A model generated the notes under the pieces. That model did no database searches. It worked only from the letters and a program-made list of their open reading frames with translations, and had not been told where the DNA came from. The position numbers were made by a program, and so were the translations under genes. A stretch of 64,000 nt of DNA from Defluviitaleaceae bacterium (GTDB lineage Bacteria > Bacillota > Clostridia > Lachnospirales > WQUN01), in assembly GCA_009781725.1 (NCBI GenBank), contig WQVF01000005.1:4845-68844 (forward strand), given 5' to 3'. This document shows, piece after piece, positions 34,401-52,520 of the stretch (position 1 is the first letter of the stretch; each line of letters begins with the position of its first letter).

Positions 34401-37400
34401 GTAGCTGGATGAGTGGCATTACCAGCTATCTGAACCCCACCACCAGTCGCAGCACGATTGTTGAATATTCTCCCACCTTCGTTAAGTGTAAGGCTTGCGG
34501 GGCCTGCCGCAGCAGCAGTTACCGAAATACCGCCTCTGTTTATGTTTGTTGCCACCAGATTGGCATTACCATCAAGAGTGAGTAATCCAGAGCCTAGGCC
34601 TCCGCCTACTGTAAGGTGTCCACCTGCTGCCACAGTAAAATGTCTAGCTAGGGCTGTCTGGATAGTAGCCCAAGGTGGAATATCTGGTGTGTTGGTAGCA
34701 CTAGCTGTCGGCATTCTCACAATAATATCGGCACCAGGAGCCGCTTGAATTGTCACGGTGCGATTCGCAGGTACGTTGATATTATGAGCAGTTACTGTAG
34801 CTGTAAGTGGAATCGTAGTGATTACCCTACCTTCGCCATACGGACATGGGTCGGAGATTATCAAGTTATAAACAGAACCATCAATACCTTCATTTACACC
34901 TGTTGTTCCCGTTGGGTGAATGATTACGGTATCTACGGTAGTGCTGTTTACGACTGCGTTTAATATAGTCCAGTCCGCGATAATAAGACCGCCCGCCGGG
35001 AAGTTGATATCCAGGTTATTTATCGGATGCCAATGTGTGCCGGAGCTTGATGCCGTTATAGCAACATTGGTTGAAAGATGGGCGTTGCCTGGTGGATTAA
35101 ACCCGCCTTGGCCGGAAGTATTGCCGTTAAATGATGCATCTTCATGAATATTAAGCTGCGGGAATGACCCCGGCGCAATATACAACCCAAATGCATACGT
35201 TCGGGTATGGATACCGCCGCCGTGGGATACGGCGTGATTATTGTGAATGGATCCATTTTCCATAGTGAAGTTGCTGTTTGCGCCAGCTATAAGGAATACA
35301 CCGCCGCCGCCAACAGTTGCCAGTGTACCGTTTGCAGTGTTGCCTGAAATACTACCATTTTCCATGGTAAACCTTGCGCCATTGGTAATAAGTGCGACAC
35401 CCCCACCACTGGAGGCTGCAATATTGCCGGCTATACTACCGCTTTCCATAGTAAAGAGACCGGTATTATTAATCGCTACACCGGCACCACCAGCAGTGGC
35501 GGCAGTACCGTTAGCAAAGTTGCCGGAGATGCTGGTGGTAGCACCTGACATATTTAACAAAGCATTGGCACCAGCAAGCATCACACCGCCTCCGCTTGTA
35601 TTAGCAGTGTTGCCAGTGATACTACCGCCGGAAAAATTATGGGGATTGTTTGCAAGATGTACATTGAGCAATACACCTCCGCCAATGTTGCCTGTGTTAC
35701 CGGAGATAGTGCCGTTGGTCATATTAAAACGGCCACCTGCGGCAGTGAAGGCTACCCCACCACCACCTGCCGTTGTTGCCGTCCCATTGGCGAAATTACC
35801 AGAAATGACACTGGACTCTGACATATTAAGCTGACCATTGCTAGTAAAGGCAACTCCTCCACCACTGGTGTTGGCAGTATTACCAATGATATTACCGCCA
35901 GAGAGATTGAGCGTTCCCCCCGCTGTAATCGCAATGCCACCGCCATTTGTGTTGGAATGATTGTTGTCGCCTGTTACCAGACTGCCAATGGTACCACCAG
36001 ACATATTAAGCGTAGTGACACCCGCTACCGCAACACCGCCGCCGTTATTGTTTGCGTGGTTGTCATAGATATATCCACCAGAAAAGATATGAGGATAATC
36101 AACATGGTTGGGATGGAGCAATACACCACCGCCATGACCAGCCGCAAAGTTATTTCGGATTCTGCCACCGGTCATTGTAAAACGAGAGTTGGTTGCAGAT
36201 GATGTAAGTGCCACACCGCCACCGCCTGGTAGGGTACCGCTGCTGGCTGTGGCATGATTATTTTCAATAATACCGCCAGACATAGTGAAATGAGTATTGG
36301 TAGAGTGAAGAGCGACCCCACCGCCACTGTTGGCAACCGCAGTACCGGTAGTGAAGTTGTTGGTAATGCTGCCACCAGTCATGGTAAAAGTACCAGGATG
36401 GGCTGCGACAGCATTGACTTGAACTCCGCCGCCGGTTGCTGCACGGTTATTGTGTATTATACCGCCTTCTCTTAGCGTAAGGCTCGCAGGTCCTGCAGCT
36501 GTCGCCGCAACCGAAATACCGCCCCTAATAATGGTGCCTCCTACAAGGCTGGCATTGCCGTCCAAGGTGAGATTACCTGAGCCAGGGCCACCGCCTATTG
36601 TCAGATGCCCGTTGGCTAGAACGGTAAAGTGCCTAACCAAAGTTGTCTGAGTAGTTGCCCAGGGAGGAATATTCGGGGTATTGGAAGCACCCGCTGTCGG
36701 CATTCTGATAATAATGTTAGAGCCGGGAGCCGCTTCGATCGCCACAGTACGGTTAGCAGGGATATTGATATTGTGAGCAGTAGTTGTCCCCGTTACGGGA
36801 ACCGTTGTGATTACTCTGCCGTCGCCGTATGGGCAGGGGTCAGAGATTACCAAGTTGAAGGTCGTACCGGATATACCATGGGTTACGCCAAGGGCACCTG
36901 TCGGGTGTATAACGATGGTATCTATAGTTGATGTAGAAATTATGCTGTTTATTAATAACCAATCAGAGGCAACTCTTGAGAAGTTGATATCTAGATTGTT
37001 AAGAGCATGAGGATGCCCTCCTGAACGTGACATAGTTACAGCAATATTTGTGGCATCCACGGCATTATATGGTGGAGCAAAATTCCCGCCCCCTGCTGTA
37101 TTGCCCGAAAATGACGCCGCAGGGTAAACATTAAGCTGAGGATATGCGCCCACTGGTAAAATGGGCGAATGAGTAAAGGTCGATGTAAAGATACCGCCGC
37201 CGTTCATTACGGCGGTATTATTATGAATAGTTCCGTTTTCAAATGTAAAATTACTACCGGCACCCACCGCAAGAAATACGCCACCGCCACCGTTGGCCGC
37301 TGCTGTACCGTTGGCAAAGTTGCCGGAAATATTACCGTTTTCCATGGCAAGCCTTGTATTATCTACATTAAGAGCCACGCCGCCACCGCTGGTATTGGCT

Positions 37401-40400
37401 GTATTCCCTGTAATATTACCGGCAGTCATTAGATGGTTAACACCTGCAGCATTCGAGTGAAGGAGTACACCGCCACCAATATTACCGGTATTGCCGGAGA
37501 TAGTACCACCTTCCATTACAAAGCGACCGCTCGCTGCAGTAAATGCTACACCGCCACCACCTGCGGTTGTTGCAGTGCCAAGCGCAATGTTACCGGAAAT
37601 AATTGCAGTATTGTTCATATTGAAAAACCCGGCACCAAGGAACGCAACTCCGCCACCGCTAACAGTTGCGGTGTTACCAATAATACTACCCGTACCGGAT
37701 ATATTTAATATACCGTTTGCGGTAACGGATACCCCACCACCATTTTGATTGGCATGGTTATTAAGTCCTATAGTAGCACTGCCTATGGTGCCGCCGAACA
37801 TATTGAGTGTAGTAGCACCCATAACCGAAATACCGCCACCGTTGTTATTTGCATGATTGTCATAGATGTAACCCCCGGAAATTATGTGGGGATATAGAGC
37901 TGGGTTGGGGTGGAGCATTATCCCCCCGCCGTTATGACCGGTATTGTTAACGATTCTGCCGCCTGTCATGGTAAAACGAGCAGGGTTAGCTGCCGTGACA
38001 GTAGAGGTAAGTGCAACACCTCCACCACCAGAGGTAGCTGCGGCAGTACCTGTTGCAATGTTGTCGGAAATAACTCCACCCGACATTACAAAATTAGAAT
38101 TAACGGAATGCAATGCCACGCCGCCGCCGCTGTTGGCGGCAGCTGTACCTACGGTAGTGTTGTGAGTAATGCTACCACCTGTCATGTGAAAAGTACCAGG
38201 TTGCGCTGCAACAGCGGTTACTATAACCCCACCACCGGTTGCAGCACGACTGTTTGTTATATGGCCGCCTTGTGCAAGCGTAAGTGTAGAGGGACCGGCA
38301 GCAGTAGCGGCAACCGATATCCCACCCCGGATATCCGTACCAGAAGTCGGCGGAGCTGTCCCACCATCAAGACGGAGATTGCCGGAGCCTGCTCCGCCGA
38401 TAGTAAGATTACCGTTTACACCCACAACAAAGTGCCGTCCCAGGTTTACCGGCGTGGTTGCAGTCATGGCAAGTATAATATTTGCACCGGGGGCCGCCTG
38501 TATTGTTACAGTTCTCAGTACATTGATGCCGTGCACTGTTCCAACGACTGGTACCGTGGTGATTGTATTACCGTCACCGAGGTCAGAAATAACCAAGTTA
38601 AAGGTCGTGCCAGATATCCCGTGGGTTATACCTAGAGCACCTGTCGGATGTATAACTATGTTCTCTATAGTCGAGCTATTTATCAAGCTGTTTATTAATG
38701 CCCAATCCGAAACAACCCTTGAGAAATTGATATCCAAGTTGTTAAGAGCATGGGGATGCCCTCCCGAACGAGATGCGGTTATTGCGATATTGGTAGCATC
38801 CACGGCATTATATGGTGGGGCAAAACTTCCACCCCCTGCTATGTTGCCCATAAAGGATGCCGCTGGATAAATATTAAGCTGGGGATACGAGCCTGCCGGT
38901 AAAATGACTAAGCTAGAAGAGGGGGTAGTAAAGATACCGCCACCATTCATAACGGCGGCATTATCATGGATAGCTCCGCCTTCAAAGGTAAAATTACTGC
39001 CTGCACCAGCCACCAGGAATACGCCACCACCGCCATTTGCGGCTGCTGTACCGTTGGCAAAGTTGCCAGATATATTACCACTTTCCATAGTAAGTCTTGA
39101 ATTGTTGGCATTGAGAGCTACACCGCCGCCGTTGGTAGAGGCTGTGTTACCGATTATGTTACCACCAGATATTATGTGAGGATTATCCGCCGGACTTGCA
39201 TTGAGTAATACACCCCCACCGATGGTAGCTGTGTTACCAATAATAGTACCACTGGTCATATTAAAACGAGAGTTGGCAGCAGAAAAAGCTACACCGCCAC
39301 CATTGACGTTTGCGTGGTTATTATCACCAGGAACGGCACTGCCAATGGTGCCGCCGCTCATATTGAGAGTAGTGGCGCCCATAACATTTATCCCGCCGCC
39401 GCTTCCGTTGGCATGGTTATCGTAGATATAACCTCCGGAGATACTATGAGGAAGATTGACAGGATGAGGATGTAGAAGAACCCCACCGCCATGCAGAGCG
39501 GTGTTATCGGAAATAAAGCCGCCGGTCATAATGAACCGTGCGCCGGCAGCAGTAAGTGCAATACCACCTCCACCGCCTGATGCGTTGGTGCTGCTGGCTG
39601 TGTTGCCGGCAATTCTGCCTCCAGACATGGTGAAGTGGGAATTGGTAGCATTAAGTGCTACACCGCCGCCGCTATTGGCAGCCCCGGTACCCGTTGTGAC
39701 GTTGTCCATGATGCTGCCGCCGGTCATGGCAAGATTAGCGGCATTGGCGGCAGAACCAGTTACCTGAACCCCTCCGCCGGTTGCGGCACGATTGTTATGG
39801 ATATGCCCACCGGCAGCAAGGGTTAGAGCACCACCGGCGGCAACAGAGACACCGCCGCGGATTATTGTCGCCGCCACTTCGTTTGCATTGCCGTTAAGGA
39901 CAAGATTGCCCGTGCCGGGCCCGCCGCCTATGGTGAGGTTACCGCCGTTGGCTACATTAAAATGCCTGACCAAAGTCGGAAGGGTTGTTATCCATGGGAA
40001 TTGATTTGGTGTATTAGGGGCACCCGGTGCCGGCATACGAATGGTTATGTTTGCACCGAGAGCAGCTTCAATTGTTACGTTGCGGCCTGCAGGTACAGTT
40101 ATCATGTGGGCATTGCTGTCCGCTGCCCCGTTGGCAAATGCCAATGTAGTTATGGTAGATCCGTTGCCAGGGTCTGTGATTACCAAATGATAATCCGTAC
40201 CATCTAATCCAGGGGTCACTCCCAGAGCACCTGTCGGATGAATGATAATCCTGTCAGGTGTCGGCTGTGTTGCGGTGCCTATTAAATTATTGAGCCTGAC
40301 CCAGTCCCCTGGGACGAAGTTTATATCCAGATTATTAAGGGGATGAGAACGCCCGTCCGAGATTTGGTTTGTTACTGATATATTGGTGTATGTTGTTGCG

Positions 40401-42436
40401 TTAATCGGAGGAATAACGCCTCCTAGATTCGAGGTATTATTAATAAAGTTTGCAGCCAATGCGATATTTAGTTGTGGAAAGTGGACCGCCGGTGCTGCTA
40501 CAGTGGGTAATGCAGAGCCACTGGTAAAGGTTGATGCAAATATACCGCCGCCTTTTGATACCGCGTGGTTATCATTGATAGTTCCTCCATTAAAATTAAA
40601 ACGAGAGTTTGCGCCAGCGGCAAGAAACACACCACCGCCACCTGCCGTAATAGCTGTGCCGTTTGCGGTATTATGGGAGATGCTACCGCCATTCATTGTA
40701 ACAATTGCACCATTGGCACCTATATTGATACCACCACCGCTGGTAGCTGCAATATTATTATGAATACTTGCATTATCCGAGATAGTAAGCTGAGGATTCC
40801 CTCCTGATGCTGCCGCAGTTATAGAAACCCCGGCCCCCAAAGGAGCCTGGTTATGAGAAATGGTAGCGTTGTCCAATATTGTAGACTGGCGTGCACCCGT
40901 TATCACAATACCGCCACCGCTCGCAGTTGCCGAGTTGTTGGTTATACTTGCGTTACCCCTCATGGTAAAGTTACCACCAGCACCAGCGAGTGATACTGCA
41001 CCACCACTTGCAAGTCGGCTATTCCTTATTATACTGCCTGACAACAAGTTTAAATGGGTATTATTAGCAACAGTAATCCCACCGCGAAGATAGGTTGTCG
41101 TGGGGGGATGTACATTGCCATCCAATACAATATGGCTCAAGGATAATATATTCCCTGTGGTTGATTGGGTGAAATGCCGGGTATTGCCGGTATGTGTAAT
41201 CACAAAAGGTGTACCTGTGAGGCTGTGATTATATAAGTGGAAGTTAAGGTCTGTGCCATAAGAGGTAACAATAATGTGGCGATTTCCTGAAAAGGTAAAA
41301 TTAGCTGCCATATCGATGTCATGGGGTACAGTGATAACGATATTGCCACCGATATTATTGGCGTTAATCCAACCTTGGTTGCCTAAGGATGCATCAAGGG
41401 GTACGATGGTGAATGTGGCAGGGGGATCATCGGCAAATGGCATAAATCCCCCTCTGTCCAAAGACCCGCCTGCATGTAGATAAATTGTTTCGTGGTTAAA
41501 TTCATAAGGGTTAAAGTTATCCAATAAAGTATGTCTGATTGTAACCCTGGTAGAGAGTTCGATTTCAGGCACCAGATGCGCAAGATCCTCTTGCTCTCTA
41601 AGTCGCTCTAACGCTTCAAGCTCATATTCGTCAAATTCCTGGCTTATGTGCTCTATTGTATAACTCCAGCCTTCCGGCAAGACAACACCAATCAGGTCAA
41701 AATCTACTACCTGTGGGAAACAGACAAAAATATAATGCCCATATATAGTGACCATGTGCATTTCATTACGGTCAAGGCTAATATTGGCATGGGCGTCACT
41801 GATAATTGTCAAGCGGTCAAAAGAAGCAGTGCCGATATAGCTGTCATTATAATCGTAATCAACGGCGTATGGAGCTTCGCCTATATAACTGTCATAATAA
41901 TCATACTCATCATTATCATAGTCAGCTTCGTTGTGATAATTATATATTTCATCGTCAATTTCCTCAGTCCGCTCACGACCGCCTCGATTCCATATGAATA
42001 TGACGGTGATGGCATCATCATCGCTGAAATAATCCTCGTAGGAAGAGTTGTTGTCATATTCGTAACCATATTCATACTCGTAATCGTAACCAGTTTCATA
42101 AGCCCGCCAAATCGCATAAAAAACCGCATCTTCGTATAATCGTTGCCCCAAATCAATAGGAGCACCGTCAGGTGTTGTGGACCAATGCGAGAATATGTAG
42201 TCAGCGAGTTGGGGTTCTATGGGTAGGGAGTTCTCTAGGGGCTGCCCCTTTGCTATGGTTATAGATACATAGGTATCATCGTCGTAATAGTGATTGCCTT
42301 CACTGTCGTTGGTTGTGAATGCGAAAACAGCGGCGGCGGCTATCACAAGAGTAAAGACAAAGGCTATAACGTATTTTGCGCGGTTGCGTACCGCTTTCCT
42401 AAATTTTTCTTTCTTCATATTCTTATATTGAATCAT
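28490..42436 (-). CDS. Giant LPXTG-anchored surface protein (4648 aa) built mainly of right-handed beta-helix / Pmp-like GGG[VI] repeats
   Basis: Uninterrupted 13,947-nt ORF with an AGGAGG RBS. From N to C: a hydrophobic segment (aa 22-40); a Listeria-Bacteroides (Flg_new) repeat; a Tyr/Asp/Glu-rich tract; seven supermodules of GGG[VI]-containing ~22-25-aa turns; two prealbumin/SpaA-like domains (GAVFEL..., GAIFRLY...); then LPMTGG, a TM segment and KKKWRK. Confidence 0.9.
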   Translation of the reverse strand: MIQYKNMKKEKFRKAVRNRAKYVIAFVFTLVIAAAAVFAFTTNDSEGNHYYDDDTYVSITIAKGQPLENSLPIEPQLADYIFSHWSTTPDGAPIDLGQRLYEDAVFYAIWRAYETGYDYEYEYGYEYDNNSSYEDYFSDDDAITVIFIWNRGGRERTEEIDDEIYNYHNEADYDNDEYDYYDSYIGEAPYAVDYDYNDSYIGTASFDRLTIISDAHANISLDRNEMHMVTIYGHYIFVCFPQVVDFDLIGVVLPEGWSYTIEHISQEFDEYELEALERLREQEDLAHLVPEIELSTRVTIRHTLLDNFNPYEFNHETIYLHAGGSLDRGGFMPFADDPPATFTIVPLDASLGNQGWINANNIGGNIVITVPHDIDMAANFTFSGNRHIIVTSYGTDLNFHLYNHSLTGTPFVITHTGNTRHFTQSTTGNILSLSHIVLDGNVHPPTTTYLRGGITVANNTHLNLLSGSIIRNSRLASGGAVSLAGAGGNFTMRGNASITNNSATASGGGIVITGARQSTILDNATISHNQAPLGAGVSITAAASGGNPQLTISDNASIHNNIAATSGGGINIGANGAIVTMNGGSISHNTANGTAITAGGGGVFLAAGANSRFNFNGGTINDNHAVSKGGGIFASTFTSGSALPTVAAPAVHFPQLNIALAANFINNTSNLGGVIPPINATTYTNISVTNQISDGRSHPLNNLDINFVPGDWVRLNNLIGTATQPTPDRIIIHPTGALGVTPGLDGTDYHLVITDPGNGSTITTLAFANGAADSNAHMITVPAGRNVTIEAALGANITIRMPAPGAPNTPNQFPWITTLPTLVRHFNVANGGNLTIGGGPGTGNLVLNGNANEVAATIIRGGVSVAAGGALTLAAGGHIHNNRAATGGGVQVTGSAANAANLAMTGGSIMDNVTTGTGAANSGGGVALNATNSHFTMSGGRIAGNTASSTNASGGGGGIALTAAGARFIMTGGFISDNTALHGGGVLLHPHPVNLPHSISGGYIYDNHANGSGGGINVMGATTLNMSGGTIGSAVPGDNNHANVNGGGVAFSAANSRFNMTSGTIIGNTATIGGGVLLNASPADNPHIISGGNIIGNTASTNGGGVALNANNSRLTMESGNISGNFANGTAAANGGGGVFLVAGAGSNFTFEGGAIHDNAAVMNGGGIFTTPSSSLVILPAGSYPQLNIYPAASFMGNIAGGGSFAPPYNAVDATNIAITASRSGGHPHALNNLDINFSRVVSDWALINSLINSSTIENIVIHPTGALGITHGISGTTFNLVISDLGDGNTITTVPVVGTVHGINVLRTVTIQAAPGANIILAMTATTPVNLGRHFVVGVNGNLTIGGAGSGNLRLDGGTAPPTSGTDIRGGISVAATAAGPSTLTLAQGGHITNSRAATGGGVIVTAVAAQPGTFHMTGGSITHNTTVGTAAANSGGGVALHSVNSNFVMSGGVISDNIATGTAAATSGGGGVALTSTVTAANPARFTMTGGRIVNNTGHNGGGIMLHPNPALYPHIISGGYIYDNHANNNGGGISVMGATTLNMFGGTIGSATIGLNNHANQNGGGVSVTANGILNISGTGSIIGNTATVSGGGVAFLGAGFFNMNNTAIISGNIALGTATTAGGGGVAFTAASGRFVMEGGTISGNTGNIGGGVLLHSNAAGVNHLMTAGNITGNTANTSGGGVALNVDNTRLAMENGNISGNFANGTAAANGGGGVFLAVGAGSNFTFENGTIHNNTAVMNGGGIFTSTFTHSPILPVGAYPQLNVYPAASFSGNTAGGGNFAPPYNAVDATNIAVTMSRSGGHPHALNNLDINFSRVASDWLLINSIISTSTIDTIVIHPTGALGVTHGISGTTFNLVISDPCPYGDGRVITTVPVTGTTTAHNINIPANRTVAIEAAPGSNIIIRMPTAGASNTPNIPPWATTQTTLVRHFTVLANGHLTIGGGPGSGNLTLDGNASLVGGTIIRGGISVAATAAGPASLTLREGGIIHNNRAATGGGVQVNAVAAHPGTFTMTGGSITNNFTTGTAVANSGGGVALHSTNTHFTMSGGIIENNHATASSGTLPGGGGVALTSSATNSRFTMTGGRIRNNFAAGHGGGVLLHPNHVDYPHIFSGGYIYDNHANNNGGGVAVAGVTTLNMSGGTIGSLVTGDNNHSNTNGGGIAITAGGTLNLSGGNIIGNTANTSGGGVAFTSNGQLNMSESSVISGNFANGTATTAGGGGVAFTAAGGRFNMTNGTISGNTGNIGGGVLLNVHLANNPHNFSGGSITGNTANTSGGGVMLAGANALLNMSGATTSISGNFANGTAATAGGAGVAINNTGLFTMESGSIAGNIAASSGGGVALITNGARFTMENGSISGNTANGTLATVGGGGVFLIAGANSNFTMENGSIHNNHAVSHGGGIHTRTYAFGLYIAPGSFPQLNIHEDASFNGNTSGQGGFNPPGNAHLSTNVAITASSSGTHWHPINNLDINFPAGGLIIADWTILNAVVNSTTVDTVIIHPTGTTGVNEGIDGSVYNLIISDPCPYGEGRVITTIPLTATVTAHNINVPANRTVTIQAAPGADIIVRMPTASATNTPDIPPWATIQTALARHFTVAAGGHLTVGGGLGSGLLTLDGNANLVATNINRGGISVTAAAAGPASLTLNEGGRIFNNRAATGGGVQIAGNATHPATFTMHGGSITNNFTNGTGVANSGGGVALSATNSHFNLNEGSITGNTSTSTNVDGGGGGVAFTNGATNSRLNMTGGIVSSNTANNGGGVLLHGSTVVGFPHTISGGYIYDNTATTRGGGIAILGASTILSMTGGRIGSLAPDQGNKSNSTVVGNGGGGIFINTGIGNQFNMSGGHIVGNHSNTHGGGIFTSMFTLANPLPMGAYPQLTIEGAANFYGNTANSGSFTPPFNAVAATQIEETNQVSGGYAHPLNNLDINFQSIEADWFRLSSVMNGTTATTIVIFPTHAPSLSPGLQGTTYNFNITDPGDGYTITTVPLDGMVVNHNINVLRSVNVQAAPNTEIVLRMPVSGAPNTPNEAPWLTTTATLNRHFIVLEGHTLTIGGGSGTGSLILDGNADLTTGNRGGVGVNAGGTLVLQNRGAITNGRMANGGGVSVLGAAGLAGTVTMSGGRITDNYAATSGGGVALTAANAHLNMSGGYISHNNAGTGGGVAITVNGGQFNMNGGTINNNIVTGAGGGVHLVVGGDINFNFTGGMIRDNHAAADGGGVFTAAFTYGSPLPTGAHFPQLNIQPPAAFNNNSAGNGGFAPPPNAAAVTQISGAVPASGGFSHPLNNLDINFLPNDWNRLNVLIDTSNLPNPGRIIIHPTGVPGVDSGLAPDGITYNFIITDPGNGSTITTVPIVNVGVSATDPHRINVLRPVIIEAAPGANIVLDMTAAATPVGGANIGRHFHVGNGGNLILGGGPTSGTLTLNGNAGTREGNRGGVTVNNAGGNLELSQGGVIQGGRAISGGGVELSINGATFTLDGGTISGNFATGTAATQGGGGVFIAGAANTLSHFTFESGSIINNHSAGNGGGIFASMHTYQNPLPDAGVPHFPQLTVSGNAVFSGNTANGAAVPPPNAASHTHVEYTPSSGGFSHALNNLDINFFFLSADWARLDRLISTTTIPNIIIHPSWSGVTPGLDILGTTYNFVITDPHPDPFYAGRTITTIHLQGGTTASNINITNRMVSIMAADDEHIVIRMPLPGAPNTPALVPWITTASASTRHFTVIANGNLSLGGIGTGTLTLDGNGDAVAVTRGGISVSGAGPVLNLLSGTIIRNNRRVGTGGATGTGGGVSLEGTSIVNMYDGVLITENFATNGGGGIGFSSMGLTPILNMHGGTISNNHASWGGGIWLMAGVVNMYGGVITGNYAGIIGTQSPFESNTHGGGGAIRVCCGGRLFMHDGTISYNTGRHGGGVHLSHSQTIGGVEHSAVFVMRGGNLIGNHASLDHIDPAVHHPAFPNNKDGGGVFITESGIFTMANPVFGNLPNEIHISHNIADRHGGGVFYEVGIWETDERNQPVVFEGNEAKEDGGGIFLSYKELEMFGEWRIDGNSATRGGGVFIHGDATPWGNTGTWHHLRGPGHLTMHGGRFYQNHSHTSGGGVYIYRDGAFFMHDGYIQENTSEIFGGGVYVFNPGTYYTARFHAYGGTLLGNRAIYGGAVYLMYRAHLFADDVLFYDNHAERMGGAIFTELVDYGYLLSGEDVPHDILFPTPPDPNEVFNAFDNIVTTELVRFDENTAIAPFHKPYNAYLLTNIKWALWDTNPYEHLSLHLHPLNNYDINYVRPVYFYKTDMEVYSFPATINNRGGAVFELDMEVWCDNANDYIWELYTTATSQANGRIALFVFHTGNFRLREVAPPPGPWYRLPPGHWYLEMALEAFEGAPGVWDDLLYIVNPPPATCPLNTEFFFVQLDRETYGTPNCEGSQAERLRWHVGNAPPRAALHLHKTGQDLFEMASPTQLAQIEDILVEGAIFRLYRYTGVGTPTDTLVPAPGWVRVGLDHTSSGDPDYPIVINLSFRADGQDHTYYQLVEIVPPPNYSAPLGQWRIRMDIIDHVIELTTISWELQGDRSTPHFIRLTGETGYVFAVGNRVDFNLPMTGGLGQHGGIIALASVGVAMIAAGGLVAYMVIVKKKWRKPSMLLVRKGLDE
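28637..28654 (-). other. LPXTG sortase recognition motif (LPMTGG) of the 4648-aa protein
   Basis: The reverse complement, ttgccaatgaccggaggc, encodes LPMTGG. It is followed by a hydrophobic stretch and a KKKWRK tail. Confidence 0.85.
29591..40336 (-). repeat. Seven intragenic supermodules (about 0.9-2.0 kb each) delimited by eight copies of the NN[LY]DIN[FY] junction motif
   Basis: Motif codons are at 40316-40336, 38723-38743, 36980-37000, 35000-35020, 33632-33652, 32549-32569, 31621-31641 and 29591-29611. Confidence 0.85.
41834..42106 (-). other. Tyr/Asp/Glu-rich low-complexity tract of the 4648-aa protein
   Basis: aa 111-141 read RAYETGYDYEYEYGYEYDNNSSYEDYFSDDD. aa 160-201 read IDDEIYNYHNEADYDNDEYDYYDSYIGEAPYAVDYDYNDSYI. 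Confidence 0.85.
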
Positions 42437-45281: not shown

Positions 45282-48200
45282 TTAAGCTTTCCTTTTCTTG
45301 ATAACCAACCGCCTGCGCTTACTCTCGGCTATGGCTAAGACAAGACACATCCCGATGAAAACCACTGTCGTTCCGGCTAAGGTAACCTCCCACATTCCGT
45401 ATCCTCCCGTCATGGGCAAATCAATTCCCGGCATATTTGGTACAAAGAAATATCCGTCAACATGCATAAAACCAGGAATGGGGCTGCCTATGGGAGTGAT
45501 TATGAATCCTGTGGGGGCATTGGCATCTACAACTATACGCCATTGTCCGATAGGGGTCATAAAACCTGAGGGCGCAACGGTTTCTACCAAGTGGTAGATT
45601 CCGTCCTCCGTGAGGTCAAAGGTGATTGGGGAATTTAACAGCCCGGTGCTGGGGATTCCGTGGTGCAATCTTACCCAATTGGCAGAGGGTATATATGCAT
45701 GGTTGGGTACCGTGCCGGTGCCAGTAAAGGCGTATAGTGAGAAGTATGCATCAGGCAGTAAAAACGGTGCGATATCGGCAATAACCGTGGGTGTTATGGT
45801 GAGTACGCCTGCTGTGGTTTTGTGGAAGCTGAATTCTTCCGTTGGCATGTAGAAGTTAATGTCGTAGTTGTTTAGTGGGTGGGTGCGTACTATTGGTGGT
45901 GGAGTGGTTTGGCTGGTGCCGGAGAATGTGGTCGCAGGCAAAACAACCAAGGCATTAGACGGAGGCACATGGAGCTGGTTAGCTCTGTTACCGGTAAAGG
46001 CTACTCCGCTTAGAACCAAGTTGCTGTATGCCACATTGACAGGCAGGACACCTATTGCGCCTGGATAGCGGGATATGGGACTTCTGTATTCCAGCCGCTC
46101 TGTATAGATACCGCCGCCCATGTAAGCTGCCCTGTTATACGTTACAGATACGCCGGTTGCGCCTGTTGTGGTCATATTTGAGTTTGTAGCAACCCATACG
46201 CCGCCGCCATAGTCGGCAGAGTTACCGATTATGGACTTAGTGTTGGCACCGGATAGGACAAAGCCCGCGCCGCCGCCCACCCATAAGCCGCCGCCATTAT
46301 TTGCCGCAAGATTTCTATTGGGATTAGGCGCACCGGGTGCAAGCCCGCCTGGGGCTGCTCCGCCGATTGTACCACCTGACATGGTAAAGTTGAGGTTTGC
46401 GGCATTAATAAAGACGCCACCGCCATTACCGGTCATAGCTTGTGCTGTATTACCTGTTGCAGTATTGCTCCTGATGGTGCCGCCGGTCATGGTAGCGTTG
46501 TTGTGGGAAATAGCCACACCGCCGCCATTGGTGTGAGAAGTATTATTGCGAATATATCCGCCGTTCATTATAAATTGGGCATTGGGATTATACACACGCA
46601 AACCGCCGCCGCCTGTACCCACAAACATTTCGTTATTATGAATATGGCCGCCGTGCATATGGAACATGGCAAGAGGGACGCTTCCGGGGGCACTTCCTGT
46701 TATGCCCTGAAGATTTACCCCTGCACCACTGCCATTATTTATATTGCCGTGTATTTCTCCGCCATACATGAAGAACCTGCCGGACAAACGTACGCCAACG
46801 CCGGAGGCACCGCCTTGAGCCGCGCCCTCTGGGAAAATTACATGATAACGGATTTCTCCGCCGCGCATTTCAAACTCGGCTTCATTTTGTACAAGCACGC
46901 CGCCGCCCCACACAGGTTCTGCATTGCGCTCAATTATGCCGTCGTACATATTGAAAGTACTGTCTTCACCTGTTACCAGTACGCCGCCGCCGCCGTGGCT
47001 TGCGGTGGTCTGGTTACCGACTATTGTGGGTATGGTTGGGCTGGCAATCGTGCCGCCCGCCTCCATAATAAAGGTACCACTCTCGGTTACCGCCACGCCG
47101 CCGCCTCGTGTTGCTACATTGGCGTCTGGGCTAGGTGATGGTGTTGGTTGCCCTGGTGCCCCCGTGGGGGGTGGGCCGCCAGTTATACCGCCTATTGTAC
47201 CGCCTGTCATGGTAAATATCGAAGACTCGGCAAAACCAACATGCACACCGCCGCCTTCTATAGCGCGATTGCGGCGGATGGTGCCGCCAGTCATATAGAA
47301 CTCCGAGTTACGGTTTGTCATACCTACTCTTACACCACCACCATGGCGGACAAGGCCGCCGGAGGGATTGTACCAATGGTCTTGGATAAAGCCGCCGTGC
47401 ATATTAAAGTAGCCGTCTTCTACAAATATACCGCCGCCGGTGTAAGCAAAGTTGTTTTCTATTGTGCCGTCGTACATATTCATTGTTGCATTCCATATTT
47501 CAACCGCACCACCGCCGCGGGCGTGGGTTGCGTGGTCGTAATAAGCTGTGTTGCCGACAATACGGGCTGTGCCAGACATGTTGAATATGCCGCCGCTTTG
47601 TAGTTCCAAACCGCCACCTTGGGATGCACGGTTACCGTAATCAGGGTTATCATGACCGATTACACCGCCGCTAAAATTAAACACACTGTATTCCCCGATT
47701 ACCCGCACACCGCCGCCATGGGAAGCTAAAGCGGGAGCCGGTGGAAGGGGTTGAGGGGATGGATGCGCCACATTGTAATAAATTTGCGCATTACCGGACA
47801 TATGGAAGGTAGAGCCCCTACCATGGTCGTCACCGAACTCTCCGCTGGTAAATACAGCAACGCCACCAGCACCGCCATGGAGAGTGGCTGGACTTGTGGC
47901 CCGGTTACCAACTATCCGGCCATGGGTTGGAGCACCTACGGCTGTGGTACCGTTTTCCATTGTGAATACAGAGCCGTTGCCGACCCATACGCCGCCGCCT
48001 TGTTGGGCGGTGTTGGCATGGGCGGGTAAAGTACCGCCTATTGTACCGCCGGTCATGGTGAGTGTAGCATTAGAAAGAGATATGCCACCGCCATTGATAC
48101 CAGCTGTATTTCCTCTTATCGTCCATAGATAGTTAATGTAAAGAACGTGGTTGTCGGGGGGATTAGCAGGGAGGTTTGTCATGGCTATGCCGCCACCGTA

Positions 48201-51200
48201 CTCTGTGGCAGAGTTGCCGCTGAAACTTATGGGTCCCGTATTGGCACCATAATTCCATATTCCATGGAAGTAATGCACACCGCCGCCTATACGAGCGTTG
48301 TTATTATTGATATTTATCGCACCGCCAGGGATGCTGACTGATACATTGTTGGTATTTGGCAAGGCGACATTTGGGACATTATAGGTATAGCTATAATCAT
48401 GAGCATCATCCATGATAAAGCTCGAATTTGGGTTACCCAAGTGAACTCCGCCGCCGTAACCTTGCAAACCACCGGCACCCAAAGCGTGGTTTCCGGTTAT
48501 GTCGCCGCGCAACATTGTAAATGTACCATTGAGCACATGTACACCGCCGCCGTTATGAGTGTTGATATCAATGGTAGCCCCTGCTGCATTGGTTATAAGC
48601 GTTGCTGGCCCACCGTTATTGGTAATTTCGCCGCCGGTCATAAGTACACGTCTATTGGCGTGGTTAATTGCAATGCCGCCGCCATAGCGACCTGCGGAAT
48701 TGTTGGTTATGGTTACGTTATCGCATACTACGAAATAGGCAAGAACCCCTTCCGCAGCAGCAGAAACCAGGTTAACCCCACCGCCATCGTTTCTAGCTCT
48801 GTTTCCGGATATTGTAAGATGGGCATTTGGGTTAGGGTTAGGTACAAGGGGTGGATGGCCAGGCACAGTTGTATCATTGGGGGAATGATTCCAAATCATT
48901 GCCCTATTCATATCCATGGTAATCCTGCCAAACTGGGTGGTAGTGTCGGTAGAATGAATACCACCACCATTGTTATTAGCATGATTATCTATGATAGTAC
49001 CACCGAACAAGTTTAACTGCCCTGCATGGTGGAAAATACCGCCCCCATTGCCACCAGCTCCTGTACCAGTCGCCCTATTTTCGCGGAAAATGCCGCCGGT
49101 TATTGTGGTGTGGGTAATCGTCATATCACCCGTATGAAGGCCTCCGCCATTAGTAGTGGCGATATTTCTATAAAATTCACCGCCATGCACATAAATATGG
49201 TTATATGGAGTATTCATCCCAACATAAAGACCGCCGCCGCTTAATGCAGTATTGCCGTATATATAGCCATCCCATATCCATACCCTTGTGCCGCAGCAAA
49301 CTCCTATGCCACCGCCGTTACCAGCATCATTACCGTAAATCCGTCCGGAATACATGTGGAAATGGACACGGCCATTGCCGCCGGTATCAAGCCCTACGCC
49401 CCCCCCCCTGCCATTATTCCAGCCAACACCAGTCGTAGGGACAAAATTTTGTATAACATACCCTCCGTCTATGATAATGGTAATCGGATTTGTAGCGGAT
49501 GAAAATACGCTTGCGCTTGAGACGTTTATACCGCCGCCAACAGTGGCGCGGTTGTTATAAATTATACCTCCTGTCTCGAGAATCAGTGTTGCGGAAGTAC
49601 CGCTGCCACCGATTAAATTGATGCCACCACGATTGCCAGGTTGAGCACTCCCGCTTAACATAGCGTTGCCGTCTAGGGTAATAGTGCCTGTACCACCGCC
49701 GCTCCCCAATGTAAGATGCCCATTTGCGCTTATTGTGAAATGGCGATCTAGAGTTGCAACAGTGGTTGTCCATGGTGGTATGCTAGGCGTGTTTACGGCG
49801 GATATCAGTGGCATTCGAATCACAATGTTGGCACCTGACGCCGGTGAAATCGTTACCGTACGAGATATGTCTATTGTATGGGAGGTTGTTCCGCCTTGAA
49901 GGTGTACCGTTGTGATAGTACTCCCGTCACCTGAGTCGCTGATGACCAAATGATAGGTACCTGCAGGCGGAGCCGGTGGTGTAGACCCATTTGGGAAAAT
50001 AATAATGTTTTGCACAGTTGTTGAGTTAATCAAGTTATTTAAGCGAAACCAGTCTGCATCTATGAACTCGAAATTTATATCTAAGTTATTTATCGGATGG
50101 TTAAACGCGCCGGAACTTGGTCGATTGGCAATGCCGGTGACAGCTACCACATTGGATGGCGGAGTAACACCGCCGCGAGCCGATGTGTTGCCAGAAAATC
50201 CTACGGCTGCTGCAATTGTTAATTGGGAGTATGCGCCTGCGGGTAATGGGTCTAAATTTACAGCCGATGTTGTAAATATACCGCCACCGGCTCCCGCAGC
50301 ATGGTTGTTTGAAATTGTACCGCTGTTTAATGTTACATGACTGCTGGCCCCAGCCGCTACAAATATACCGCCGCCGCCGGCAATGGTTACAGTTCCGTTG
50401 GCATGGTTTTCGGTAATGCTGCCACCATTCATGGTAAATAAAGAACCGTTTGATTGGAGGTTTACCCCTCCGCCGCTTGAAGTAGCGATATTACCACTGA
50501 TGCTGGCACTGCCCTCCATAATAAGCTGAGCACCAATTGAGCCAATATTTACCCCGGCACCATTTAGTGCCCTATTTCCAGTTATACTACTGTTTCCCGA
50601 CATGCTAAGGGTACGTGAGCCGCTGATATGCACCCCACCGCCGTTTCCGCTGGCAGAGTTATTAGCGATACTTGCATTACCCGTCATTATAAATTGCCCG
50701 ACATTACCGGCTGCACTTACCGCACCACCGCTTGTAATCCGGCAATTGCGTATTACACTGCCTTGACGCATGTTTAGGTTACTACCGGCAACAACAGAAA
50801 CCCCGCCCCGGTTTGGTGTTGTTGCTGGGTGTGGAACGCCCCCGTCAAGTATAATGTGACTGAGTGTCAAGGTAACATTGGCACCCAGAGTAAAATGCCG
50901 CCCGCCGCCTGTGGCTGTATGGGTGACAACATAGGGAGGCAATGTCCGGGTGTGGTTATCCGGGCTGTTATTTAGGTTAGTACCATAGCTGGTTATTATG
51001 ATATGGCGATTGCCTGATATATTCACATTAGCATTTAGCTCTACATTATGCGGTACGGCTATAACACGATTGCCGTCTGCGGCAGTCCCAATAGCGGTTT
51101 GCCATGATTCATTATCAATTACGCCGCTAATGGGGTCAGGTGCTAGTATATGCACAGGGTAGGGTGCCCCTATAATAAGAGGCATAATACCTATATAACT

Positions 51201-52520
51201 TGGACGGTCAAATATATCGTGGCGTATCGTTACGATTGTGTATGTGTTGTATCCGACATGGTCGTTTATATAATAATGCATGTGCAGATGTGTATGATGA
51301 CAGCAGCCTTCCCCGCTGTATCGAGTTTCATGTTCTTTCATTTCAAAACCTTCAATTTCAGGCTCTTCGGTTTCGAAATCTACAATTTCCACTTCCTCGT
51401 GACGAATCGTATATGTCCACCCTAATGGTAGATTAAGGCCGATGTCACTGTAATGCAACCAAGTCGGGAACTCTACGTGTACATATTCTCCATCCAGGGT
51501 AACAATGTACTCCACAGCAGGGTAAACGGCGACATTGGCGCGATAATCCAACTCAATAAACACATTTGGCCCTGCCCACATACCGCCATGGTTCCACATA
51601 AAGTAGACCGTGATAGTTTCCTCAAATGAGGAGCCAAGAGAAACCGGAAGCCCATAGACACCGCGACCATGCTCGTTATAGCCGTATTCATACCAATGGT
51701 CTTCGATGTATTCATATGAGGGATAGTCATCGCTATACCAATAATCTACTGCATATCCATAATCGGGATTGTCATAGCTATGCTGATAATCTTCGGCATA
51801 TCCGTAAACAGGGTAATCATAGTCATACCAATAATCTCCGGCATACTCGTAATCGGGATAGCCATAGTTATACCAATAATCTTCTACATATCCATAATAG
51901 TAATCGTTGTAATAACCATAGCCTCCGACACCTTCGTACCCATGATACTCGTAGTCGTACTCATAATCCTCAGCATATCCATAGCCATAAGCTCCAGCAT
52001 ACTCATACTCAGGACTATACTCGTCATAATAATAACTCGGCACATACGATGTATAATCATATCCATAATAATCGTAACCATAATCATATGTACCAGCATA
52101 ATCATACCCATAACTATAATACTCGTACTCATAATATTCCGGGGCCTCACCAACATAGTCGGTATCAGCCTCATACTCATTGGCATATCGCCATATAGCA
52201 TAAAATGTCGCTGATTCATACAAAGGCTGCCTAAAATCAAAAGCTCCCCCATCAGCTGCATGTGACCAATGAGAGAACATATACCCGGCAATTTCCGGTG
52301 ACTCCGGCAACACATCTGCCAATGACTGTCCTCTAGGGATTGTCACAGAAATATACAGATACTCATCCTGGGGCTGATAGCCATATTCACCATTATCTGT
52401 GGCAGCAAAGATTACAGCAGCAGTAACGACAAAGAGGCAAATCGCAGCCAGGATATATCTAACGCGCCCCCGCCCCGCTTTGCCAAAACTGTTTCTTATT
52501 CTTTTTACTATGTACTCCAC
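45282..52520 (-). CDS. Giant LPXTG-anchored beta-helix surface protein (2412 aa), paralogous in architecture to the 4648-aa protein
   Basis: GTG start with AGGAG 8 nt upstream. The N-terminal 110 aa are colinear with the larger protein (hydrophobic segment plus Flg_new repeat). Then about 180 aa of Tyr-rich tract; GGG[VI] beta-helix repeats; motifs HPINNLDINF (50070-50090) and HPLNNYDINF (45853-45873); a SpaA-like domain; and LPMTGG plus a TM segment plus KRRR. Confidence 0.9.
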   Translation of the reverse strand: MEYIVKRIRNSFGKAGRGRVRYILAAICLFVVTAAVIFAATDNGEYGYQPQDEYLYISVTIPRGQSLADVLPESPEIAGYMFSHWSHAADGGAFDFRQPLYESATFYAIWRYANEYEADTDYVGEAPEYYEYEYYSYGYDYAGTYDYGYDYYGYDYTSYVPSYYYDEYSPEYEYAGAYGYGYAEDYEYDYEYHGYEGVGGYGYYNDYYYGYVEDYWYNYGYPDYEYAGDYWYDYDYPVYGYAEDYQHSYDNPDYGYAVDYWYSDDYPSYEYIEDHWYEYGYNEHGRGVYGLPVSLGSSFEETITVYFMWNHGGMWAGPNVFIELDYRANVAVYPAVEYIVTLDGEYVHVEFPTWLHYSDIGLNLPLGWTYTIRHEEVEIVDFETEEPEIEGFEMKEHETRYSGEGCCHHTHLHMHYYINDHVGYNTYTIVTIRHDIFDRPSYIGIMPLIIGAPYPVHILAPDPISGVIDNESWQTAIGTAADGNRVIAVPHNVELNANVNISGNRHIIITSYGTNLNNSPDNHTRTLPPYVVTHTATGGGRHFTLGANVTLTLSHIILDGGVPHPATTPNRGGVSVVAGSNLNMRQGSVIRNCRITSGGAVSAAGNVGQFIMTGNASIANNSASGNGGGVHISGSRTLSMSGNSSITGNRALNGAGVNIGSIGAQLIMEGSASISGNIATSSGGGVNLQSNGSLFTMNGGSITENHANGTVTIAGGGGIFVAAGASSHVTLNSGTISNNHAAGAGGGIFTTSAVNLDPLPAGAYSQLTIAAAVGFSGNTSARGGVTPPSNVVAVTGIANRPSSGAFNHPINNLDINFEFIDADWFRLNNLINSTTVQNIIIFPNGSTPPAPPAGTYHLVISDSGDGSTITTVHLQGGTTSHTIDISRTVTISPASGANIVIRMPLISAVNTPSIPPWTTTVATLDRHFTISANGHLTLGSGGGTGTITLDGNAMLSGSAQPGNRGGINLIGGSGTSATLILETGGIIYNNRATVGGGINVSSASVFSSATNPITIIIDGGYVIQNFVPTTGVGWNNGRGGGVGLDTGGNGRVHFHMYSGRIYGNDAGNGGGIGVCCGTRVWIWDGYIYGNTALSGGGLYVGMNTPYNHIYVHGGEFYRNIATTNGGGLHTGDMTITHTTITGGIFRENRATGTGAGGNGGGIFHHAGQLNLFGGTIIDNHANNNGGGIHSTDTTTQFGRITMDMNRAMIWNHSPNDTTVPGHPPLVPNPNPNAHLTISGNRARNDGGGVNLVSAAAEGVLAYFVVCDNVTITNNSAGRYGGGIAINHANRRVLMTGGEITNNGGPATLITNAAGATIDINTHNGGGVHVLNGTFTMLRGDITGNHALGAGGLQGYGGGVHLGNPNSSFIMDDAHDYSYTYNVPNVALPNTNNVSVSIPGGAININNNNARIGGGVHYFHGIWNYGANTGPISFSGNSATEYGGGIAMTNLPANPPDNHVLYINYLWTIRGNTAGINGGGISLSNATLTMTGGTIGGTLPAHANTAQQGGGVWVGNGSVFTMENGTTAVGAPTHGRIVGNRATSPATLHGGAGGVAVFTSGEFGDDHGRGSTFHMSGNAQIYYNVAHPSPQPLPPAPALASHGGGVRVIGEYSVFNFSGGVIGHDNPDYGNRASQGGGLELQSGGIFNMSGTARIVGNTAYYDHATHARGGGAVEIWNATMNMYDGTIENNFAYTGGGIFVEDGYFNMHGGFIQDHWYNPSGGLVRHGGGVRVGMTNRNSEFYMTGGTIRRNRAIEGGGVHVGFAESSIFTMTGGTIGGITGGPPPTGAPGQPTPSPSPDANVATRGGGVAVTESGTFIMEAGGTIASPTIPTIVGNQTTASHGGGGVLVTGEDSTFNMYDGIIERNAEPVWGGGVLVQNEAEFEMRGGEIRYHVIFPEGAAQGGASGVGVRLSGRFFMYGGEIHGNINNGSGAGVNLQGITGSAPGSVPLAMFHMHGGHIHNNEMFVGTGGGGLRVYNPNAQFIMNGGYIRNNTSHTNGGGVAISHNNATMTGGTIRSNTATGNTAQAMTGNGGGVFINAANLNFTMSGGTIGGAAPGGLAPGAPNPNRNLAANNGGGLWVGGGAGFVLSGANTKSIIGNSADYGGGVWVATNSNMTTTGATGVSVTYNRAAYMGGGIYTERLEYRSPISRYPGAIGVLPVNVAYSNLVLSGVAFTGNRANQLHVPPSNALVVLPATTFSGTSQTTPPPIVRTHPLNNYDINFYMPTEEFSFHKTTAGVLTITPTVIADIAPFLLPDAYFSLYAFTGTGTVPNHAYIPSANWVRLHHGIPSTGLLNSPITFDLTEDGIYHLVETVAPSGFMTPIGQWRIVVDANAPTGFIITPIGSPIPGFMHVDGYFFVPNMPGIDLPMTGGYGMWEVTLAGTTVVFIGMCLVLAIAESKRRRLVIKKRKA
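45402..45419 (-). other. LPXTG sortase recognition motif (LPMTGG) of the 2412-aa protein
   Basis: The reverse complement, ttgcccatgacgggagga, encodes LPMTGG. Confidence 0.85.
51657..51881 (-). repeat. Five phased 45-nt (15-aa) tandem repeats inside the Tyr-rich tract
   Basis: Units start at 51881, 51836, 51791, 51746 and 51701. They encode DYWYNYGYPDYEYAG / DYWYDYDYPVYGYAE / DYQHSYDNPDYGYAV / DYWYSDDYPSYEYIE / DHWYEYGYNEHGRGV. The string TACCAATAATC recurs at 51736, 51826 and 51871. Confidence 0.9.

Follow-up and report, generated by a model that had tools for sequence, protein, structure and literature searches.

Low-complexity stalks are already familiar from sortase-anchored adhesins. The Ser-Asp R regions of the staphylococcal Clf and Sdr proteins and the stalks of the serine-rich repeat adhesins belong to LPXTG-anchored proteins, consist of long acidic dipeptide-like repeats that have been tandemly duplicated, are predicted to be unstructured, and serve as a spacer rather than as an enzyme or a fold. 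In a 64,000-nucleotide stretch of contig WQVF01000005.1 of a Defluviitaleaceae bacterium (the window), we studied a tract that resembles them in these respects, the Tyr/Asp/Glu/Gly-rich segment formed by residues 111 to 288 of a giant surface protein of 2,412 residues (p1), together with its shorter counterpart in a paralogue of 4,648 residues (p2). The likeness to the known stalks stops at position and chemistry. Clf/Sdr-type stalks adjoin the C-terminal wall anchor and push the ligand-binding domain outward, whereas the p1 tract lies at the opposite, distal end of the fiber; they are Ser-based and glycosylated, whereas the p1 tract is Tyr-based and contains 4% Ser. Furthermore, we found no glycosyltransferase gene among the window neighbors of p1 and p2, and the tract does not classify as a stalk of the kind found in the microbial surface components recognizing adhesive matrix molecules (MSCRAMMs) or in the serine-rich repeat proteins.

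Three other systems share part of its composition. CotC and CotU of the Bacillus spore coat are, like the tract, about 30% Tyr with Asp and belong to an extracellular structure of a Firmicute, and multimerization or cross-linking through Tyr has been proposed for them. They are, however, small, Lys-rich proteins that lack both a signal peptide and an LPXTG signal and are assembled in the mother cell, whereas the p1 tract is Lys-free and forms part of secreted fibers of 2,400 to 4,600 residues. The [G/S]Y[G/S] regions of the FUS/EWS type and resilin have regularly placed Tyr in disordered, Gly-containing sequence and, like the tract, could make weak multivalent aromatic contacts, but they are nearly uncharged and Gln/Ser-rich, whereas the p1 tract is bacterial, extracellular, and 24% Asp plus Glu. 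The anionic wall polymers and the acidic SlpA protein of alkaliphilic Bacillus species (PMC8153356, PMC5938343) resemble it in dense negative surface charge, in depletion of basic residues, and in belonging to Gram-positive bacteria that live at pH 10 or above. These, however, are embedded in the wall or form a two-dimensional lattice near the membrane, whereas the p1 tract makes up a short part of a long fiber, at its tip, and Tyr as an ionizable group is undescribed for them. We also considered the "tyrosine-rich" region of staphylococcal Sbi and rejected it as a match, as it is a different, C-terminal region that binds lipoteichoic acid. In literature searches on Tyr-rich LPXTG proteins and on Tyr-rich surfaces of alkaliphiles, no description of such a module was found. 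By those searches, what is new is the Tyr-based composition, the distal position, a private motif (G-Y-I-G-x-A-P), and the sharing of the module by nearly all of the giant surface proteins in one termite-gut genus.

We propose, with a probability of about 40%, that selection maintains the tract as a disordered, Lys-free polyanion that serves the distal end of the fiber as a linker or brush and whose tyrosines ionize in situ. In p1 it contains 64 Tyr (36%), 22 Asp, 20 Glu, 21 Gly (12%), 2 Arg, and no Lys, for a net charge of −40. An earlier first-pass annotation, made from the letters of the window alone, had reported the dominance of Y, D, E, and G in this region, and the counts bear it out; the string that it quoted, YEYEYYSYGYDYAGTYDYGYDYYGYDY, is also present. 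Set against the mean of 3.9% Tyr in the long open reading frames (ORFs) of the genome, the Tyr content has a binomial P value of 2e-43. The tyrosines also alternate: a Tyr is followed by another Tyr at position +2 in 52% of cases, versus 35% in shuffled sequences, and at position +1 in 12.5%, versus 35%. This alternation lies 3 to 5 standard deviations (SD) off the shuffles, and the autocorrelation peaks at a lag of 15 residues. Residues 111 to 288 matched no Pfam family at E values up to 1 and no NCBIfam family.

The 15-residue period is exact at the level of the DNA. Five units begin at 51881, 51836, 51791, 51746, and 51701, precisely 45 nucleotides (nt) apart and in phase, as the first-pass annotation had listed them, and read in order DYWYNYGYPDYEYAG, DYWYDYDYPVYGYAE, DYQHSYDNPDYGYAV, DYWYSDDYPSYEYIE, and DHWYEYGYNEHGRGV, the fifth being degenerate. 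The same phase can be traced about three units further upstream, and Tandem Repeats Finder (TRF) reported positions 51720 to 51898 as a repeat of period 45 with 4.0 copies, 75% matches, and 0 indels. The tract arose through in-frame tandem duplication. The idea that its copy number changes by slippage receives weak support at best, since the units are only 49 to 80% identical to one another in DNA sequence and the longest exact repeat within the tract is 14 nt; with 45-nt units of that divergence and without long near-identical runs, the tract does not look like a simple-sequence contingency locus.

To identify relatives, we searched 5.8 billion clustered proteins with the N-terminal head of p1 and ran a full HMMER scan of 1.8 billion representatives. 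The clustered-protein search returned one relative, P0004 (2,474 residues), and the HMMER scan returned 317 matches, most of them to the Flg_new repeat only and about 15 of them true homologues of the head. A profile search of genome contigs with the head alignment gave three distant Flg_new matches only, all in unrelated organisms. The tract was found between the YAIW end of the Flg_new repeat and an ITIxFxWNxGG strand in all 14 homologues measured. Its length ranges from 32 to 250 residues, Asp plus Glu from 16 to 34%, Lys plus Arg from 0 to 4%, and Tyr from 12 to 35%; 13 of the 14 fall between 23 and 35% Tyr, and the lowest value belongs to the 40-residue tract of P0036. All homologue tracts of about 40 residues or more carry a Y-I-G-type motif. 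The repeat period is 15 in p1 and P0004, 6 in a giant encoded on contig C40 of the same genome, 6/12 in P0020, 13 in P0005, and 16 in P0021. Since the periods differ among paralogues and homologues, the expansions were independent, and composition is what has been kept.

Comparison of p1 with its orthologue P0004 allowed selection on the tract to be estimated. The same 15-residue consensus unit begins at residue 212 of P0004 and residue 214 of p1 and is present in similar number, and positions D1, Y2, Y11, and Y13 do not vary among eight units from the two proteins, with synonymous TAT/TAC differences at these columns. The ratio of nonsynonymous to synonymous substitution rates (dN/dS) was 0.21 for the tract (60 codons; dS of ~1.9, near saturation), compared with 0.115 for the folded Flg_new repeat, and amino acid identity was 45 to 48% in the tract, compared with 38% in the domain that follows it. 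By these sequence comparisons the tract is under purifying selection. The first-pass annotation had held that a tract absent from or not conserved in orthologues would be a neutral expansion; in fact, a tract was present in every homologue found, and its conservation (dN/dS of ~0.2) is about on par with that of the rest of the protein.

We then scanned all ORFs of the genome from which the window comes (3.35 Mb, 109 contigs), scoring a tract wherever some 40-residue segment held at least 10 Tyr and counting as giants the LPXTG-type ORFs of at least 1,000 residues. Tyr tracts were found in 17 of the 20 giants but in only 5 of 1,491 other ORFs of at least 300 residues (Fisher P = 1e-32). With few exceptions they fall in the first few hundred residues, directly behind the signal peptide or, in five giants, behind one Flg_new repeat. 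The 20 giants are also depleted of Lys about 15-fold relative to other long ORFs (0.27 versus 4.15%); by the same comparison they retain Arg (3.9 versus 5.0%), have less Asp plus Glu, and have more His and Asn. That 17 of about 20 nearly Lys-free giants share the tract and a private motif points to a common lineage-specific surface function. The individual tracts vary: the 4,044-residue LPXTG ORF on contig C40 has, at residues ~200 to 300, about 15 tandem NYYY[AT]R hexapeptides, which contain Arg and are not acidic. Tyr/Glu/Asp tracts also occur in the C-terminal 70 residues of a cytoplasmic protein, a NusA-like ORF on contig C16 (EEYYEEEYYDEYDD...), and at residues ~28 to 97, behind the signal peptide, of a 561-residue DD-carboxypeptidase-like ORF on contig C15 (a membrane-anchored, penicillin-binding-type peptidase).

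The order of domains in p1 is signal peptide, one divergent Flg_new repeat, tract, beta-rich head domain, SYIGIMPL linker, and first beta-helix (Table 1). The first-pass annotation had placed the tract between Flg_new and the first beta-helix block, and the order holds, but a beta-rich domain of roughly 150 to 190 residues and a linker come before the beta-helix. The Flg_new label itself needs qualification: PF09479 scored 18.7 bits on residues 61 to 108, under the Pfam gathering threshold of 27, although residues 58 to 112 match hundreds of multirepeat proteins in the HMMER scan, and the repeat is best described as a divergent relative lying outside the tract. The head domain had no Pfam or NCBIfam match and, among the 19 genera of the family that we examined, is restricted to this genus. 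In p2, the counterpart that had been assigned to 41834 to 42106 is real, and the unusual acidic, Tyr-rich low-complexity region is genuine in both giants, but in p2 it is not one tract: two pieces are separated by the conserved strand AITVIFIWNRGG, which the second piece, tract B, follows. The insertion site of tract B is also occupied in P0014, P0017, P0026, and P0027.

Both ends of the giants bear on where the tract sits. The N-terminal hydrophobic segment of p1 looks like a cleavable signal peptide, cleavage being judged from the sequence: the hydrophobic core ends in [VI][FIL]A, an ending that recurs in about 17 paralogues and fits the −3/−1 rule. LPXTG substrates have cleaved signal peptides. 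At the other end, p1 has LPMTG, 28 mostly hydrophobic residues, and then KRRRLVIKKRKA, and p2 has LPMTG, a hydrophobic segment, and then KKKWRK; the genome holds nine matches to the sortase family PF04203 above the Pfam cutoff. With an LPMTG motif, a hydrophobic segment, and a K/R-rich tail in both giants, and with sortases in the genome, the covalent wall anchor is C-terminal, and the tract therefore lies at the far, wall-distal end of the fiber.

Table 1. Features of p1 and p2 on the window (coordinates are window positions, in nt; residues are those of the protein named)
Feature	Coordinates	Strand	Basis
p1, gene for a 2,412-residue sortase-anchored beta-helix surface protein	45282..52520	−	ORF and translation; AF2 beta-helix body, pLDDT 85-95
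N-terminal signal peptide of p1, residues 1-40; K/R-rich n-region, 19-residue hydrophobic core, VIFA/A ending	52401..52520	−	Sequence read by eye; AF2 helix at residues 16-41
Single Flg_new-like (Listeria-Bacteroides) repeat of p1, residues 55-111	52188..52358	−	PF09479, 18.7 bits; HMMER matches
Tyr/Asp/Glu/Gly-rich low-complexity tract, p1 residues 111-288	51657..52190	−	Composition; AF2; no Pfam match
Motif copy Y-[IVL]-G-x-A-P (YVGEAP), p1 residues 122-127	52140..52157	−	Motif statistics; genus-only DNA pattern
Four well-formed 45-nt/15-residue units, consensus D-Y-w-Y-x-x-n-Y-p-d-Y-G-Y-x-x	51702..51881	−	TRF; unit alignment with P0004
Fifth, degenerate unit (DHWYEYGYNEHGRGV), which closes the p1 tract	51657..51701	−	22-26 of 45 nt identical to other units
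Beta-rich head domain of p1, residues 289-440; starts ITVYFMWNHGG, has GCCHHTHLHMH cluster	51201..51656	−	Alignment A1; AF2 strands, pLDDT ~50
Junction motif SYIGIMPL, p1 residues 441-448, just ahead of the beta-helix cap	51177..51200	−	G444 and P447 invariant in alignments A1 and A2
C-terminal cell wall sorting signal of p1: LPMTG, hydrophobic segment, KRRRLVIKKRKA tail	45285..45419	−	Sequence; weak NCBIfam match to LPXTG-anchored pilin C terminus
p2, gene for the 4,648-residue paralogue; head architecture as in p1, LPMTG signal at 28493-28654	28490..42436	−	ORF, translation, C-terminal sequence
p2 tract A, residues 112-141; homologous in position to the p1 tract	42014..42103	−	Alignment A1; measured 32 residues, 28% Tyr, 34% Asp plus Glu
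p2 tract B, residues 153-200; another Tyr/Asp/Glu insertion, lying within the domain that follows	41837..41980	−	Has SYIGEAP (41870-41887) and SYIGTAS
Antisense shadow ORF, 190 residues, His/Asn/Arg-rich, not a gene	51626..52198	+	Reverse complement of the TAT/GAT-rich coding tract, whose conservation is on the minus strand

We predicted the structure of the head with AlphaFold2 (AF2) from an alignment of six heads and that of the beta-helix in a second run. Residues 114 to 300 had predicted local distance difference test (pLDDT) scores of 20 to 30 and were without secondary structure, whereas the signal helix, the Flg_new repeat, and the head domain scored 50 to 70 and, in the second run, the first beta-helix scored 85 to 95. 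This model is consistent with intrinsic disorder of the p1 tract.

The homologues point to a particular habitat. P0004 and P0014 lie on contigs of Joint Genome Institute (JGI) metagenome 3300009826 and P0005 lies on one of metagenome 3300010162; a published sample table lists the first as Emb289P1 (P1 compartment of the humus feeder Embiratermes neotenicus) and the second as Lab288P1 (P1 of the soil feeder Labiotermes labralis) (PMC7024585). By NCBI naming, P0005 comes from a Defluviitaleaceae metagenome-assembled genome (MAG), and it is found in the same-genus genome G002. In the study with that table, 79% of the Defluviitaleaceae MAGs came from P1 (PMC7024585), a gut compartment that is highly alkaline (PMC7024585, PMC10018900). 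The residue trend of the giants matches that of alkaline-adapted secreted enzymes (PMC8153356), and anionic surface and wall polymers are an accepted adaptation of alkaliphilic Gram-positive bacteria (PMC8153356, PMC5938343). The module is possibly tuned to the very alkaline gut section in which the relatives were found. When we computed the charge of the p1 tract with textbook pKa values, it went from −39 at pH 7 to −79 at pH 10.5 and −93 at pH 11. Since the pKa of Tyr is about 10, in P1 it would act as a third acidic residue, so that Tyr, Asp, and Glu would make up one acid class, and a single acid class at the pH of P1 would explain the odd combination of Tyr with Asp and Glu.

A polyanionic linker or brush of this kind would stand close to the N terminus of sortase-anchored beta-helix fibers, the end that is free and distal to the wall, and in p1 and p2 between the Flg_new cap and the head domain. 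It would have grown by in-frame tandem duplication, with a 15-residue unit in p1 and units of other lengths in the paralogues, and selection would act on composition and a small number of short motifs (a Tyr in every other position, DY...YGY, and Y-I/V-G-x-A-P) rather than on a fold. The tract would be flexible and strongly hydrated at the tip of the fiber, its tyrosines ionized in P1 and, below pH 10, neutral and sticky. The roles that we infer here and below (linker, brush, pH switch), and ionization in situ, have several points weighing against them. The link to alkalinity has three homologues and the composition as its basis, and a brush at the distal end would add little to pH homeostasis at the membrane. 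The C40 tract carries Arg, so acidity is not universal, and Tyr rather than charge is the constant feature. The tracts of the NusA-like and DD-carboxypeptidase-like proteins hint at a lineage-wide mutational propensity that extends beyond the LPXTG set. Finally, with only six sequences in the AF2 alignment, low pLDDT is weak evidence of disorder.

Termite-gut Defluviitaleaceae are abundant and uncultivated, and the gut section in which they are concentrated is, to our knowledge, the most alkaline in any animal. The tract bears on how their surfaces cope with and use alkaline chemistry, and its ~180 residues offer a simple test system for low-complexity sequence tuned to extreme pH through the Tyr side chain. 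If it is only a linker, the topology is still corrected, and the module is a feature of a whole protein set rather than an oddity of two genes.

A different possibility, which we regard as doubtful, is that the tract is a sticky recognition tip, in which aromatic stacking and hydrogen bonding by Tyr would attach the fiber to lignocellulose or humic particles, to gut cuticle, or to other cells, and turnover of the repeats would diversify the tip among the ~17 paralogues. The distal position of the tract on C-terminally anchored fibers would suit such a tip, as would the variation in tract length, unit, and sequence among paralogues while Tyr stays high, and the habitat is full of particles and polyphenols (PMC7024585). 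However, above pH 10.5 the ionized tyrosines, together with the Asp and Glu that make up 24% of the tract, would repel most anionic surfaces; the extreme N terminus of p1 is the Flg_new repeat and not the tract; and the orthologues hold the unit under purifying selection, with no diversification.

The tracts are punctuated by the motif G-Y-[IVL]-G-x-A-P, often followed by D/E-Y; examples are GGYIGYAPDYYY and a copy that closes its tract, GGYIGIAPLS. The copy in p1 is DYVGEAPEYY (residues 121 to 130), and p2 has SYIGEAPY. The ORFs of the genome contain 34 matches to Y[IVL]G.[AT]P, compared with 8.75 ± 2.4 in shuffled sequences. A degenerate DNA pattern for the motif occurred 17 times in this genome, 3 and 4 times in two genomes of the same genus, and 0 or 1 time in each of 38 others from the family and order, while its reversed control occurred 0 times in the three genomes of the genus and at most once elsewhere. 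By comparison, a DNA pattern of six alternating Tyr codons, run on the 41 genomes, was unspecific: the reversed control gave a similar result, and AT-rich repeats were matched. In the two same-genus genomes the motif matches again stood in the order signal peptide, Tyr-acid tract, GGYIGxAP, and beta-helix or Flg_new body. A related motif, [YF][IV]G[IF]xP[LF], lies immediately upstream of the beta-helix in every member, and in p1 AF2 placed this junction copy, SYIGIMPL, in a low-confidence linker, not packed on the helix, a placement that fits a short linear motif. In a second subfamily (query C21), three copies of the motif have kept their positions among orthologues that are 49 to 66% identical. 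From its sequence, G-Y-I-G-x-A-P/[YF][IV]G[IF]xP[LF] may be a docking or processing site. We had also considered SYIGIMPL as the first strand of the beta-helix, which its position in the low-confidence linker led us to reject. The likeness of Y-I-G-E-A-P to the pilin E-box (ETxAPxGY) was put down to chance, there being no Lys-containing pilin motif, as was its likeness to laminin YIGSR, there being no SR.

A more elaborate form of the polyanionic-brush reading, and one that we consider rather unlikely when taken as a whole, would join the two elements in a phenolate-based, pH-titratable brush on ~17 fibers, with G-Y-I-G-x-A-P as a docking or processing site that all of these proteins share. 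The brush would be extended and repulsive at pH 10 to 12 in P1 and would collapse and turn adhesive as the pH drops toward the posterior gut or near surfaces; alternatively, it might bind Fe(III), other cations, or humic material. A bacterial surface would then, if this is true, sense or exploit extreme alkalinity in a manner not described before.

The motif is also the mainstay of a reading in which the tract is a substrate for processing or modification, with the motifs as protease or docking sites and with tyrosines that are O-glycosylated or oxidatively cross-linked, the whole acting as a pro-region or a cross-linking handle. The enrichment of the motif and its confinement to the genus count toward this, as do the positions kept in the second subfamily and the junction copy that AF2 leaves off the beta-helix, and Tyr O-glycosylation is known in Firmicute S-layer proteins (PMC2943079). 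We nevertheless think it unlikely, as no candidate enzyme adjoins the genes in the window, the motif in p1 stands at the start and not the end of the tract and its position is not fixed, and a folded Flg_new repeat and head domain lie N-terminal of the junction motif, which would be unusual for a pro-region that is discarded.

Alternatively, the tract could be a neutral low-complexity expansion, in which the growth of TAT/GAT/GAA-type repeats is tolerated as junk in long surface proteins. The base composition fits, with 40% G+C in the tract compared with 50% and a TAT-to-TAC ratio of 52:12, and so do the wide range of tract lengths, the varying repeat periods, and the Tyr/Glu/Asp tracts of the NusA-like and DD-carboxypeptidase-like proteins. 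What makes neutrality quite improbable is the concentration of tracts in the giants, at the same site in all homologues; the low dN/dS, with synonymous TAT/TAC changes at the invariant Tyr columns; a degree of conservation at least equal to that of the neighboring folded domain; and the departure of Tyr alternation from the shuffles.

Very improbable, in our view, is a structured element: the Y-x-Y pattern and the 15-residue unit would fold into amphipathic beta-hairpins, into a small solenoid, or into a cross-beta zipper, so that tyrosines stack and fibers associate, perhaps when cations or a lower pH neutralize the acidic face. The strong alternation and the lag-15 peak would be expected of such an element, and the units of p1 and P0004 have Pro or His at position 9 and Gly at position 12. 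Against it, AF2 gave the tract no secondary structure at pLDDT scores of 20 to 30, and the p1 repeats showed none of the regular beta-structure of a ~15-residue beta-solenoid in that prediction, which came from a shallow alignment; the paralogue units are 6, 12, 13, or 16 residues long; and a net charge of −40 opposes self-association without counterions. The placement given by the first-pass annotation, an acidic spacer that spans the wall beside a membrane anchor left uncleaved at the N terminus, has the long hydrophobic core (~19 to 20 residues) in its favor but is extremely improbable in the face of canonical C-terminal LPMTG signals in both giants, nine sortase-domain matches in the genome, a core ending that in ~17 paralogues fits the −3/−1 rule, and the cleavage of signal peptides that is general among LPXTG substrates.

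Several further features of these proteins were apparent. P0020, a metagenomic protein of 545 residues, has a second Tyr tract at residues ~260 to 440, built of GYY[AT]H-type units with a period of 6/12; this tract follows the head domain instead of preceding it and is closed by FGYLGIVPLS. The head domain of p1 contains, at residues 403 to 416 (51273 to 51314), a vicinal Cys-Cys pair with a His cluster, GEGCCHHTHLHMH, and kindred Cys/His elements are found as DGCCHYED in C60, as HGCCHTAE in P0048, and as a conserved KSCDCHGYVR in the C4/C21 subfamily; judged by sequence, the cluster may be a metal site. Opposite the tract, the plus-strand reading frames had been called shadows of it, and the ORF there is indeed a His/Asn/Arg-rich antisense reading. 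Within the beta-helix body of p1, residues 1801 to 2100 (~46221 to 47120) are 81 to 90% identical to P0004, which comes from another termite metagenome, whereas the rest of the protein is 38 to 65% identical, and this block suggests recent recombination or gene conversion.

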